Assembly: GCA_043818055.1 (NCBI GenBank)
Contig: JBDRGF010000012.1
Span: 1-11,267 of the forward strand
Length of the DNA: 11,267 bases
DNA from: Pseudomonadota bacterium
GTDB lineage: Bacteria > UBA10199 > 2-02-FULL-44-16 > JBDRGF01
Reading direction: 5' to 3'
Below the pieces are notes generated by a model, which had not been told where the DNA came from, searched no databases, and worked only from the letters and a program-made list of their open reading frames with translations. Below, one piece after another: positions 607-5,933 of the stretch. A program made the translations under genes and the position numbers. Positions within the stretch are counted from its first letter, which is position 1. Each line of letters starts with the position of its first letter.

Positions 607-1731
607 ATGGCAAGAGTCACGAGAAAAGATATCTATAGAATGGACAGTAACCGAGATGGAAAGGTGACTGAAGATGAGATTAAGCAATTTTACTCTAAAA
701 ATAAAACTCGGTTTGATGGTAAAAAAATCGAATTTGGTGGAAAGACGTATGAGAGCTGGATAAAATTTTTAGAGGCTCACAAGAAGGATATTACAGATTC
801 AGCTTGGAATGTGAAGCCTCATGATGCAAACGCTAAAAATGTTAATAAAGCACTTGCGCAGATTCGAAACGACTATTCTAAGGTTTTATCGTTGAAGGAG
901 CAGGTTGCACAACTCCAGCAACAGATTAAGAAGGGTTCGACTCCAGAGCTTCAGAAACAACTTAAAACTATGCAGGCACAGTTAGCAGCATTTCAAGCAA
1001 GGCTTGGTGCCAAGCTCTTGAAGGCGAAGTCGTTAGCGAAAGCTGCGGGAATGTCTGAAGATCTTCGAGGGGAGTGGTTCAAAGAGGCCGGTCTCAAACA
1101 GCCATCAAAATCGTTTGGCAACTTGAACATCCCTTTGAAGGGTGCTGTAGCTTCAAAGGGTTTAGGTGGGAATATGAACCTTGGAAAGGCTATTTCCGAC
1201 GCGAGCTCATTTAGCCCTCCGGCAAGCTGGGGTAGTCAGTTCGGTCCGAAATCTGCAGATTTTAATTTAAGCTCCATCATGCAGGATCTCAATCTCGAGG
1301 CTTTAGACAACGTCTTCAAAACACAACAGGATGGCGATAAACTGATGAGGCTTTTCTATTATTATGCAAGGATGGCGGCCAGCGGAGACATGGGTGCGAT
1401 GTACGAATTTATGAAGTTCATCACATATATCATCTCGAAGGATAAGGCCAAGCAGCAGGTCGAGATGGGTAAAAAACTTATCAAGCTTCAGTCCGATGCG
1501 AGAAAATGGACGAGCGAACTGTTGGCTATGGATTCCTCAAAATCAGGCGATGAGTTTTCAAAGAAGATGATGGAGGTGAAGAGCGAGACCGATTCAATCG
1601 CAACATCCCAGAAGCTCATAGCGCAGATGATGGAGGAGATGGCACAGGTCGTCGAAACTCTCACCAATTCGACTAAGGCAGCTCTCGACGCGCATGGCAG
1701 GATATTGAGAGTAGTCTCGAGGATGGGATAA
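607..1731 (+). CDS. Helical/coiled-coil protein (374 aa) with N-terminal EF-hand and C-terminal T3SS needle/filament-like domain; putative type III secretion substrate
   Basis: Long ORF with SD GGAGGAG (597-603). EF-hand loop DSNRDGKVTEDE, Gln/Lys-rich coiled coil, Met-rich helical C-terminus paralogous to 2438..3352. Directly upstream of a SycD-like chaperone. The CDS is secure; the function is inferred. Confidence 0.6.
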   Translation: MARVTRKDIYRMDSNRDGKVTEDEIKQFYSKNKTRFDGKKIEFGGKTYESWIKFLEAHKKDITDSAWNVKPHDANAKNVNKALAQIRNDYSKVLSLKEQVAQLQQQIKKGSTPELQKQLKTMQAQLAAFQARLGAKLLKAKSLAKAAGMSEDLRGEWFKEAGLKQPSKSFGNLNIPLKGAVASKGLGGNMNLGKAISDASSFSPPASWGSQFGPKSADFNLSSIMQDLNLEALDNVFKTQQDGDKLMRLFYYYARMAASGDMGAMYEFMKFITYIISKDKAKQQVEMGKKLIKLQSDARKWTSELLAMDSSKSGDEFSKKMMEVKSETDSIATSQKLIAQMMEEMAQVVETLTNSTKAALDAHGRILRVVSRMG

Positions 1732-1734
1732 AAA

Positions 1735-1764
1735 AGCTGTCAGCTGTCAGCTCTCAGTTGTCAG
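1735..1764 (+). repeat. Heptamer tandem repeat (AGCTGTC-type, 4 units)
   Basis: AGCTGTC AGCTGTC AGCTCTC AGTTGTC AG immediately after the stop codon at 1731. Confidence 0.85.
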
Positions 1765-1850
1765 TCAGAGAAGAGACAGGAGAAAAGACTTGCCCTTACA
1801 GCTCTATAAATGATATTTTTACCCTCTCAAAAGAGTTCAGAGGAGGAAGG

Positions 1851-2438
1851 ATGAGTGATAAAGAGGGTAAGGCAAAAGAGGCCGACGCGACTGAGGAGTT
1901 TTTCAAAGAATTGGAAGAGGCCTCAAAGGATATACCGGAAGAAGAATTGAAAAAAGGGGCGGAGAAGATCCGCCGTTTTATTAGCGGCGATGTTGGTTGG
2001 GCGGAACTTTTCGATTTCACGCCGGAGATGCTGATGCAAATGGCAGAATTTGGTTATCTTCAGTTCAAACAAGGGCGCATGCCTGACGCCGAGAGAATCT
2101 TCAAAGTATTGACAGTTCTTGACTGGAACAATTACTACTATCACTCCATGATGGGGACGATTTTGCAGCGCCAACACAGGTATGGTGAAGCGATAGCAGA
2201 ATATGGTCAGGCGCTTGAACTCTTTCCTGATGATGTCGTCAGCCTCACCAATCGCGGCGAGGTTTTCATGCAGCATGGTTTATATAAAGAGGCAAAGGCC
2301 GATTTTGAGACAGCTATTTCGCTCGATCCGAAGGGAAAGGATAAGTGGTCGAACAGGGCGAGGATGCTTTTAGCTCAGTTGCAAGAGAGGGTTCGTGAAA
2401 AAGAGGGGGCTAAACCTAAACCCAAGGAGAAGAAGTAA
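1851..2438 (+). CDS. TPR protein, SycD/LcrH-like type III secretion class II chaperone (195 aa)
   Basis: Start reassigned to ATG 1851 (SD AGGAGG at 1841-1846). Three TPR motifs and the SycD-like pattern FISGDVGWAELFDF...GYLQFKQGRMPDAERIFKVLTVLD...MGTILQ...EAIAEY. Confidence 0.75.
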   Translation: MSDKEGKAKEADATEEFFKELEEASKDIPEEELKKGAEKIRRFISGDVGWAELFDFTPEMLMQMAEFGYLQFKQGRMPDAERIFKVLTVLDWNNYYYHSMMGTILQRQHRYGEAIAEYGQALELFPDDVVSLTNRGEVFMQHGLYKEAKADFETAISLDPKGKDKWSNRARMLLAQLQERVREKEGAKPKPKEKK

Positions 2439-3352
2439 TGGTTGATCGCGTAGTTCGTGGAGGAGTTGGGGATTCTGATCTTCGGGCAAGGCTCGAGAAG
2501 GCTGGAGTTATTGATGAGCTCGCCAAGGGAAATATCCACGAGGTATTAAAGCGCCTGCCGGGAACTGTATCCATTAAAGATGTCGAACAGTTTCTTGCCT
2601 CACAGTTGCAGAGGCTCGAGAGAAACATCTGGCAGGATAAGGAGCGCGTCTATTCATTGCAGGGCGAGCCGCCGCCACCGAGTCCAATCGATTTTAAAGA
2701 TCACGATAAGAAGGTCGAATTAAGTTCAAAGGACAGGGAGTTCATCAAAAAGAATTTAAAAGCTGGTGTTGTCAAAGGGCTTGGTAAGGCTGTTGTAACC
2801 GGAAAGGCTGTAACCTCTGGAAAAGCCGCCAATGCACCTATGACAGAGGATGAGCTGCATAACATGGTCGATTCTACTATTGCTGACGCTGAACAGCAGA
2901 TGCGCGATATCGCCTGGTCTGTTGCAGTTCGTCAGTTCGATATGGAATATCAGAGAAGAAATGACGAGATCATAAAGGAGATCAAAAAGCTCTTCGCCCT
3001 TGCAAAATCAGGCAAAGTGGATGCGGTCTTTTTAATTCTGGCACTCACCAAGGTGAAGATGATGGAGGATGGCAAGACCACAGCCCGTCTGGGTATGGAG
3101 ATGGGGCATTACAACGAAGAGATGAATCGTGTTTCTCAGGAGCTCTACGGCAAGGACTCAACGGCCGATTATGGAACATTGCAGCTGGGCGCCCAGGAGA
3201 TGAAGGATATGAATTTCAATATGGAGCAGATGACCATGTCGCTGAATAAACAGATCGGTCAGCTGGAAGAGGCGATAACATTTGCGCAGGATTCGACTAA
3301 AAATATTCTGTCAACACGCAGAGAGATAATCAATCGCGTTGGCAGCGTGTAA
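2438..3352 (+). CDS. Met-rich helical protein (304 aa), C-terminal domain paralogous to 607..1731; putative type III secretion substrate
   Basis: TAATG overlap with the upstream stop, suggesting translational coupling. PPPPSP linker, GKAV repeats, helical C-terminus ending DSTKNILSTRREIINRVGSV. Confidence 0.6.
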   Translation: MVDRVVRGGVGDSDLRARLEKAGVIDELAKGNIHEVLKRLPGTVSIKDVEQFLASQLQRLERNIWQDKERVYSLQGEPPPPSPIDFKDHDKKVELSSKDREFIKKNLKAGVVKGLGKAVVTGKAVTSGKAANAPMTEDELHNMVDSTIADAEQQMRDIAWSVAVRQFDMEYQRRNDEIIKEIKKLFALAKSGKVDAVFLILALTKVKMMEDGKTTARLGMEMGHYNEEMNRVSQELYGKDSTADYGTLQLGAQEMKDMNFNMEQMTMSLNKQIGQLEEAITFAQDSTKNILSTRREIINRVGSV

Positions 3353-3358
3353 AGTATT

Positions 3359-3385
3359 GTAGGGGCGCCCCCCCGTGGTCGCCCT
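3359..3385 (+). repeat. Single GTAG-family REP
   Basis: GTAGGGGCG-CCCCCCCGTGGT-CGCCCT, sharing the GTAGGGGCG...CGCCC frame with the REP at 57-79. Intergenic, 6 bp after a stop codon. Confidence 0.75.
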
Positions 3386-3402
3386 CTGATAGGAATTCCG
3401 GA

Positions 3403-3939
3403 ATGGAAGAGATTAAAAAGGAAAAAATGGCCACTGTGAATATCGGCGATCCGACCCCCGATAGAAAGCGGAGGATTGTCGAAGTTCTATACGCGTTTTT
3501 GGAGGACAAGATCTCGATCGCCGAACTATCAGGCGTCTCCCGTCAGGACATGTACAGGATGGCAGAGGCCGGATACGTGAAATACAAACATGGCAGATAT
3601 GAAGAGGCCGAGAAGATATTCCGTTCGCTAATCGTGCTCGATCACAGAAATCCATACTTCCATTCCATGATGGCGGCCATCTATCAACGCGAAGGACGCC
3701 TGGTCGAAGCGATCATGGAGTACGATTTAAGCCTCAAGGTCAACCCCGAAGATGTCGCAGTTTTTGTGAACAGGGGAGAGATATATTTGAGAAACCACAA
3801 CTACCGCAGGGCGGCCGAAGATTTCCGCTCGGCAATCCTGCGAGATCCAAAAGGTTCCAACCTATGGGCCAACCGCGCCCGCTCACTAGTCATAGCCCTC
3901 AAACGCCAGCTCGAGAGGGATGTGGGGAAAAAGAAATAA
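3403..3939 (+). CDS. TPR protein, SycD/LcrH-like type III secretion class II chaperone (178 aa; alternative start 3427)
   Basis: Aligns without gaps to 1851..2438 over ~137 aa with about 60 identities by hand count. Shared motifs AEL, MAE.GY, VLD, HSMM, EAI.EY, NRGE, DPKG, W.NRAR. Confidence 0.75.
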   Translation: MEEIKKEKMATVNIGDPTPDRKRRIVEVLYAFLEDKISIAELSGVSRQDMYRMAEAGYVKYKHGRYEEAEKIFRSLIVLDHRNPYFHSMMAAIYQREGRLVEAIMEYDLSLKVNPEDVAVFVNRGEIYLRNHNYRRAAEDFRSAILRDPKGSNLWANRARSLVIALKRQLERDVGKKK

Positions 3940-4842: not shown

Positions 4843-4869
4843 GCAACAAATTTGTATTATTGCCGATAA
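4843..4869 (+). promoter_or_regulatory. Putative sigma28 (FliA/WhiG-type) promoter
   Basis: Perfect -10 GCCGATAA (4862-4869) with GCAA 15 bp upstream (consensus TAAA-N15-GCCGATAA), ending 38 bp before the ATG at 4908. Confidence 0.55.
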
Positions 4870-4907
4870 CACGGATGTAAAAATTAAATAAAAGCAAAGG
4901 AGTGATT

Positions 4908-5933
4908 ATGACAAAGGGTATTAAGATTGGATGGACTCCACCGGCAATAGTTCCCAGTATGGCGACAGACACTATGCAGAAATCAGTTATTTACGGACAT
5001 GGTCCAGAGGATTCCAGATTTGAATTGGATCCAGTCACACCGGGGATTTCGCAGCAGCAATCGCCGATTGTTCCAAAGCAACTTGCACCAAAATCACAAT
5101 TCAATATTGATGAAGCAAATAAAGCCCTGTCTGAAGGTCGTTATCCAGATGCTATGTTCTATCTTGAGGGAGTTACAGGTGCATGGATCCGGAAAGGGGA
5201 ACCCGAATTAGCCCTCGACTGTTTGGGAGCCGCGAAGGAGATGTCCGAAACACGTTTCAATGATACCACGTTTCGAACAGAGCTGCGATTAGCGGGGCAC
5301 GCCCATGCTTTGGGAAGGGAAGACCTCGTCGATTATTTCTTTTCCCGGACACACGAACTGATCGAACGGACATCGGATGAATTTAAAAAAGAAGAAATCT
5401 GCTTCGCAACTGGCATAACATATGCGAAAATTCAAAGATTTGATAAAGCCTTTGAATTAACTGAATTAGTTCAGGATAGATTTAACTACTATCGCGTTAT
5501 TGCCGAAAAAATTATCGAACAGGGAAATGCTGAGCTTGCAGAGGAAATCATCCTAAACAAGGCTGTACCCGCTGCGCGTGCAGAATTAAATCGCATAGAA
5601 TATGGCATGCCGCATCTCATATATGCTGCCGAAATGTTGATGAAGATGGGCAAGGCTGAGTCTGCAAAAGCATTATTGGATGAAGTGGCGCAGGCATATC
5701 ATGCGATTTCCTGGCATCAGATCGATCTCAAGTTCTCGTATCGAAGCAATGCTGAGAAAACAGCGGTTCTTTATGCTCAGCTTGGTTTTAGAGATGAAGC
5801 GATCGATATGGTGAACAGAGGCTGGTTCAGGGAAGATGTTCTCAACGATATTACGCCTGAAGAGCTGCAAACTCATAAGCTCGAAAGGATCAAAGATCAT
5901 TGGAAAAATTTGTGGAGAGCGCTGAATCAATAA
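4908..5933 (+). CDS. Hypothetical all-helical, TPR-like repeat protein with a Pro/Ser/Gln-rich N-terminus (341 aa)
   Basis: SD AAGGAG (4897-4902) favours ATG 4908 over GTG 4902. Recurrent helical-repeat patterns (YAKIQRFDKAFEL, LMKMGKAESAKALL, YAQLGFRDEAIDM). Confidence 0.7.
   Translation: MTKGIKIGWTPPAIVPSMATDTMQKSVIYGHGPEDSRFELDPVTPGISQQQSPIVPKQLAPKSQFNIDEANKALSEGRYPDAMFYLEGVTGAWIRKGEPELALDCLGAAKEMSETRFNDTTFRTELRLAGHAHALGREDLVDYFFSRTHELIERTSDEFKKEEICFATGITYAKIQRFDKAFELTELVQDRFNYYRVIAEKIIEQGNAELAEEIILNKAVPAARAELNRIEYGMPHLIYAAEMLMKMGKAESAKALLDEVAQAYHAISWHQIDLKFSYRSNAEKTAVLYAQLGFRDEAIDMVNRGWFREDVLNDITPEELQTHKLERIKDHWKNLWRALNQ

Follow-up and report, generated by a model that had tools for sequence, protein, structure and literature searches.

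What do two helical proteins of no named family do when each is encoded next to a small tetratricopeptide repeat (TPR) protein, and how do such gene pairs come to stand in tandem ahead of housekeeping genes? We addressed this question for contig JBDRGF010000012.1 of a Pseudomonadota bacterium, which was analysed whole (11,267 bases; hereafter the window) together with its source genome (2.93 Mb, 94% complete; G000). Reading of the open reading frames (ORFs) gave four co-directional genes on the + strand in the order A1-TPR1-A2-TPR2:

607 to 1731, + strand: A1, 374 amino acids (aa); N-terminus resembling an EF-hand, then a helical hairpin, a disordered linker at 171-234 and a three-helix domain at the C-terminus; candidate for a secreted subunit of a tip or filament
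1851 to 2438, + strand: TPR1, 195 aa; SycD/LcrH-like three-TPR protein (TIGR02552 E 3e-21, 75.5 bits)
2438 to 3352, + strand: A2, 304 aa; its C-terminal domain of three helices is a paralog of the one in A1
3403 to 3939, + strand: TPR2, 178 aa; SycD/LcrH-like three-TPR protein (TIGR02552 E 7e-21, 74.4 bits)

The A2 ATG overlaps the TPR1 stop (2438). The ORF finder opens TPR1 at a TTG (1758); the ATG at 1851, behind a GGAGG site, is likelier. The first-pass annotation had read this order, which is real, as a stand-alone operon of a non-canonical type III secretion system (T3SS). Our analysis shows the block to be, close to certainly, part of a T3SS; it is the displaced tail of a T3SS gene cluster and not a stand-alone unit. 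A1 and A2 are best read as chaperoned, secreted tip or filament subunits of a needle-like filament, with the SycD-like partners holding them, a reading to which we give about an even chance.

Linkage to secretion genes was seen in relatives. Among 25 loci with an A1 relative, the full four-gene order was present in 20, and the remaining 5 were cut by contig ends. The export gene sctT lay at most 1414 nucleotides (nt) upstream of the block in 17 of the 25 loci; 6 were too short to tell, and 2 had other upstream genes, as in the window. Since the block normally stands directly after sctT, as the tail of the cluster, and has simply been displaced in this genome, the proposed stand-alone operon was not supported. 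The TPR2 profile matched 89 of 93 genomes of the phylum, which we take to be UBA10199, nearly always twice. The A2-slot profile matched 89/93 phylum genomes and 0/108 outside genomes, the profile having been trained on sequences from these genomes. Within a set of 61 relatives sctV was found in 60, and the A1 profile reached 35, the non-matching genomes having divergent helical genes in the same slot. Block and T3SS genes thus occurred together phylum-wide. The relatives' records are titled Deltaproteobacteria, Myxococcales, Bdellovibrio, Pseudomonadota or bacterium, mostly the first two, in line with the deltaproteobacterial-type organism first suggested.

No export-apparatus gene lies within the 11,267-nt window, as the first-pass annotation had noted; the apparatus is encoded elsewhere in the genome. 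SctR (239 bits, cutoff 208.6), SctV (785, cutoff 692) and SctN (632, cutoff 605) scored above their T3SS cutoffs. Contig C90 carries sctJ, a FliA-like sigma factor gene, a FliG-like gene, sctL, N, O, P and Q, a fliO-like gene, and sctR, S and T; sctV is on contig C159 and sctU on contig C88. SctN and SctS also passed the flagellar FliI and FliQ models, scoring slightly higher there. Judged by these profiles the type III export apparatus of this genome is non-flagellar, and the claimed link to type III secretion was borne out. A flagellar role was considered and rejected: flagellin and rod profiles found no match in the 94%-complete genome, and flagellin occurs in 12 of the 93 phylum genomes. 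An unannotated 158-aa gene on contig C90 (L011:5022-5498) is likely sctI, its orthologues weakly matching the inner-rod profile (E 7e-4 to 0.4, 4/5). The genome has three secretins, whose neighbouring ORFs read as genes of type II secretion system (T2SS), pilus and Tad type. A Tad-like pilus cluster with a secretin (L041, G000:C20:1-5300) deserves notice, since a passage of PMC12075869 has the myxobacterial T3SS* working together with a Tad pilus.

TPR1 and TPR2 are paralogs (41% identity, E 8e-43). Their SycD/LcrH character held in part: TIGR02552 was the best NCBIfam family of both, ahead by more than 11 orders of E-value, and the scores listed above lie under its cutoff of 104.8. They are the two best matches of the SycD/LcrH profile in the genome. 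The best natural small-protein matches of the TPR2 family profile in the PDB were AcrH, PcrH, IpgC and SycD, and the top matches overall were designed consensus TPRs and OGT. The SctY profile matched both TPRs weakly (E 0.01 and 5e-4). Each conforms to the class II chaperone pattern of a small three-TPR protein in a T3SS cluster next to helical substrates.

Paralogy of A1 and A2 had been claimed as well. BLASTP was blind to it (E 0.15, not significant). Profile comparison by hhalign gave 67.5% (E 5e-5), 88.5% (E 2.7e-6) when the A2 alignment was widened, and 96-97% when the link ran through long divergent A1-slot proteins. Controls gave 3.2% or less with six other cluster families, 0.2% with A2 reversed, and 23% with A1 set against its own reversed sequence. 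The A2-slot profile recovered window A1 among its second matches (E 4e-5). The paralogy is restricted to the C-terminal 120-140 residues, and for this part the claim stands: by profile comparison only, the two proteins are distantly paralogous and form a single family C-terminally. Each has three long helices in its AlphaFold model (A1 216-258, 262-307 and 314-372; A2 137-190, 196-238 and 245-302).

Scans of A1, A2 and 48 slot proteins against Pfam and NCBIfam gave nothing above cutoff. At the sequence level the PDB offered generic coiled coils or nothing to the profiles of A1, A2, the wider A2 set and the F slot and to one 73-aa protein (the last two introduced below), and Foldseek with the A1 and A2 models returned generic helical bundles and no match at E <0.001. 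VIA-align, applied to A2 only, placed an unrelated helical domain best (Z 11.1); IpaB (Z 9.1) was tied with many others and is therefore uninformative. Atlas language-model feature neighbours of A1/A2 were the chlamydial DUF720, EspA, IpaD and LcrV clusters (0.86-0.91), which we treat as a lead only; the top match of A2 was a cluster without a name, in which Myxococcota is the phylum labelled most often. Searched exhaustively, the A1 profile reached 129 cluster representatives. Such names as close homologues carried were all 'hypothetical protein'. The A proteins diverge faster than the TPRs (median identity 36% and 25% vs. 59% and 57%) and are expanded to up to four copies in some of the loci listed, both as expected of surface-exposed parts. 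The start of A1 (window 607-700) bears a conserved EF-hand-like D-x-N-x-D-G loop, a sub-threshold Pfam match, with a possible role in calcium sensing. In many genomes of the phylum, unlinked paralogs of the A C-terminal domain also lie away from the T3SS cluster (G075:C128, G028:C57, G022:C16:1437999, G032:C29, G027:C1:66710 and others).

A further gene set stands at the other end of the export cluster:

L011:200-1814 (G000:C90), before sctJ: E-F-G-like triplet

It comprises a 94-aa gene (small, E-like), a 167-aa gene (F slot) and a TPR gene (G-like), just before sctJ, and is conserved in eight further genomes. The order E-F-G is a needle/chaperone arrangement, and the F-slot protein is Gly-rich in its N-part and ends in a conserved helix. 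Needle and chaperone families E, F and G are understood here as listed in PMC13466201. The terminal helix of the A2 family aligned with the F-slot family (86.9%, E 4e-6). When the TPR2 profile was run against 370 outside genomes, with 8 candidates scored per genome, two matches at E 1e-18 were obtained. One genome, G192, had no T3SS neighbours in the stretch fetched. The other, G281 (9 Mb, about 69% GC, probably myxobacterium-like), has a long T3SS cluster in the order E-F-G, fliA, sctI, sctJ, whose proteins are 29-59% identical to those here (SctN, SctR, SctS and SctV 52-59%). Three near-identical tandem genes of 72-73 aa lie there between two LcrH-like genes (L090:4898-6044, G281:C57; also L099). 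These 73-aa proteins aligned to the F-slot profile at 94% and had matches in 16 of 61 genomes of the family of G281, two to four in several. The A2 profile found 10 of the same 61 genomes, weakly; 8 of the loci were read and held F-slot genes beside sctI/sctJ (5), helical genes directly before an LcrH-like gene (2) and one unrelated gene. The needle profile PF09392, applied to five genomes, stayed below cutoff throughout, with its top genome-wide match in G035 falling in the A1-slot gene; among the 11 rows listed, 7 fell in the A1-slot gene, F-slot genes, sctI or small tandem genes. F-slot genes had such sub-threshold PF09392 matches both in relatives and in G281. TIGR02105 gave 4 rows, one of them in an F-slot gene. 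A 509-aa LcrH-adjacent protein of G281 showed a weak EF-hand match.

Two kinds of promoter-like motif occur in the window:

538 to 552, + strand: sigma54-type -24/-12 promoter-like site upstream of A1, by pattern match
4843 to 4869, + strand: sigma28-like motif, relaxed form, upstream of orphan ORF 4902-5933 and beyond the A1-TPR block

The sigma54 -24/-12 consensus served as the pattern. Such a site preceded A1 in 22 of 24 A1-family loci, the window included, with 0.03 expected; two loci were left out for lack of upstream sequence. The upstream regions of TPR1 (0/21) and sctR (0/19) had none. In many relatives TPR2 is followed by genes for an FHA-AAA (sigma54) activator and a kinase; contig C71 carries the nearest matches to them in this genome. 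The sigma28-like motif stood upstream of the F-slot gene in 8/8 loci and of divergent A1-slot genes in 14/24. A sigma28-driven A1 in this order was rejected (3/24 A1-family loci vs. 1.9 expected; only L033 and L037 fit the matrix). In its strict form the motif had 46 sites in the genome vs. 1-3 in five mononucleotide shuffles, and 42 of these had an ORF within 140 nt, a raw count without control. The genes concerned encode mostly orphan proteins of up to 1494 aa: 20 of the 42 proteins were scanned, and 18 had no Pfam match at E 1e-4, the others being one trypsin-like and one AAA domain. Of the three tandem 73-aa genes in G281, two had the same motif ahead of them. The FliA-like factor of the cluster probably reads it. 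The orphan TPR-like ORF at 4902-5933 (343 aa) may belong to the same regulon and is a candidate substrate of the same system.

We propose that TPR1 and TPR2 would keep A1 and A2 soluble in the cytoplasm, that the export apparatus would secrete the two proteins after the F-slot protein, and that these would then assemble, by the terminal helix they have in common, into a tip or the distal part of a filament. Several results weigh against this proposal. Between A1 itself and the F-slot family there was no alignment (0.7% and 3.4%), while the short divergent A1-slot family aligned with A1 at just 6.7%. No needle, tip or translocator profile reached its cutoff, and PF09392 and TIGR02105 found nothing in this genome. 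The AlphaFold models have low pTM (0.42-0.43), in most rows the Atlas families account for less than half of the cluster members, with the family call flagged as probably wrong, and the TPRs remain below the SycD/LcrH cutoff. No dedicated secretin SctC was present in the T3SS clusters examined. Pore-forming translocators are the usual clients of class II chaperones, and tip proteins have either helical chaperones or no chaperone at all (PMC13466201). In addition, passages of PMC3459982 and PMC10433427 report no SctF, tip or translocon in myxobacterial systems.

The client preference of class II chaperones raises the alternative that A1 and A2 are atypical translocators, chaperoned like SctE/SctB, whose short amphipathic helix-turn-helix makes a pore in a target (possibly bacterial) membrane. 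They are two substrates of translocator size beside genes of the chaperone class that binds translocators, and an apolar helix-turn-helix with a Gly-Asp turn is conserved in all slot families. The P/VxLxxP anchor, which is not universal among translocators (PMC13466201), was found in 6 of 23 A2 sequences (1.45 expected) and 8 of 42 in the wider A2 set (3.8 expected), but in only 1 of 69 A1 sequences (3.0 expected). The turn region bears 7 charges in each window protein, and translocator profiles had no match at E 0.05 among 48 slot proteins. Hydropathy is low: the hydrophobic segments had been called short, and their best 19-residue Kyte-Doolittle means are indeed 0.66 (A1) and 1.69 (A2). A value of at least 1.6 was reached by 0/69 A1 and 4/23 A2 sequences and a value of at least 2.0 by none, compared with 2.4-2.7 in SctR/S/T, the only proteins used for comparison. 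No long transmembrane segments were seen across the two families, in agreement with the non-canonical substrates first suspected; lacking transmembrane hairpins, A1 and A2 are by their sequences not canonical SctE/SctB, and we regard a role as atypical translocators as unlikely. Variable N-terminal regions, variable copy number and the unlinked paralogs of many genomes would suit secreted effectors or adaptor scaffolds that reach the periplasm by export and leave via a borrowed Tad or type II secretin. Secretins in T2SS, pilus and Tad contexts are at hand where the cluster has none, and the myxobacterial partnership with the Tad pilus offers a precedent. The fixed position and near-universal presence in the phylum fit core parts better, though, and what is conserved is a C-terminal helical domain and no enzyme domain; we hold this explanation to be improbable.

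An internal function is conceivable too, in which the A-TPR pairs control substrate order or the sigma cascade as SctX/SctY-, gatekeeper- or anti-activator-like regulators. The weak SctY matches of both TPRs point that way, no gatekeeper gene was recognised in the T3SS cluster, a FliA-like factor is encoded within it, and a sigma54 activator and kinase stand just downstream in relatives. The SycD scores are far above those of SctY, however, and core regulators do not resemble the A genes in size, in speed of divergence or in expansion; we hold such a function to be about as improbable as the effector reading. That these are generic TPR and helical proteins without a tie to type III secretion could be argued from the sub-cutoff SycD scores, the designed TPRs and OGT heading the PDB matches, and the unlinked block of this genome. 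This view is largely refuted by synteny, namely the conserved position after sctT and the phylum-wide co-occurrence, and outside genomes also have such a helical gene beside an LcrH-like gene; we consider it very improbable.

Thiery et al. 2022 is said to be the primary paper on the myxobacterial T3SS*. The long 'needleless' form of this system (Myxococcus xanthus MXAN_2434-2464; the 'Myxo' family of Abby and Rocha 2012) is the nearest to the one described here, M. xanthus being known to us by published description. In passages of PMC10433427, PMC12075869 and PMC11509652 it has several homologues of LcrH but neither secretin nor needle nor translocon. Shared with it, by passages of PMC10433427, are the export apparatus, SctN/L, SctJ, SctI, several LcrH homologues and the lack of a cluster secretin, and via G281 the E-F-G-fliA-sctI-sctJ order and the same promoter motif. 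The putative placement of the system here with T3SS* is based on this gene order and the SctN/R/S/V identity to G281. The two differ after sctT: here two A proteins of 300-760 aa alternate with chaperones, whereas G281 has the three tandem 73-aa genes and a gene of about 160-180 aa between two LcrH-like genes, and elsewhere, ahead of a third LcrH-like gene, its 509-aa protein, which has a terminal helix of the same kind. The terminal helix is the sole part that the A proteins detectably share with these counterparts. The SycD/LcrH and SctE/SctB sets (YopB/D, PopB/D, IpaB/C; two sets in Chlamydia) resemble the block in their three-TPR chaperones next to helical substrates and in duplicated pairs, but here there is no transmembrane hairpin, a mostly absent anchor, no profile match, and an adjacent TPR gene of its own for each substrate. 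SctA tip or filament proteins (EspA, IpaD, LcrV) and SctF are alike in hydrophilic long helices and a conserved terminal helix, in the nearest language-model features and in the sub-threshold needle-profile matches; they differ in that no significant sequence or fold match was obtained here and the adjoining chaperones are TPR and not helical. Our literature search found nothing on the A1, A2 or TPR proteins; figures and supplements were outside it and may already annotate the small genes. The passage seen of preprint 10.64898/2026.10.21.760627 merely names the phylum.

Downstream of the block follow genes for a pseudouridine synthase and a glycerol-3-phosphate acyltransferase, mutL and a miaA-like ORF (the last read from sequence), the housekeeping genes that the first-pass annotation had reported. 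The intergenic stretch at 226-400, upstream of A1, holds inverted repeated CCGG/GATCC-rich units; an RNA-run contig joins it to another place, which suggests a dispersed repeat. In one groundwater metatranscriptome, contigs cover A1 and A2; since they also cover housekeeping and intergenic parts, they do not show transcription of A1/A2.

Passages of PMC3459982 have Abby and Rocha argue that SctF was lost in the Myxo lineage and allow that tip/translocon homologues could have been missed, and how a secretin-less T3SS* delivers is, in passages of PMC10433427, PMC12075869 and PMC3459982, an open question. The present candidates bear on this standard account of loss. We tentatively suggest, at somewhat less than an even chance, that the 'needleless' T3SS* of predatory myxobacteria and of a whole uncultured phylum is not needleless, and has a deeply diverged SctE-F-G needle set with chaperoned tip/filament subunits (A1/A2; the tandem 73-aa genes in myxobacterium-like genomes) under a flagellum-like sigma cascade. 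If true, this would be a secretin-less, possibly bacterium-targeting injectisome in which the stage between flagellum and injectisome is preserved; the sigma28-like motif, which points to candidate substrates, would then list some 40 unknown ones in this genome. The secretion system with this block is a near-universal trait of the phylum, and the block, with the genes around it, supplies specific candidates for the outer parts that are missing from T3SS*, testable in cultured myxobacteria.

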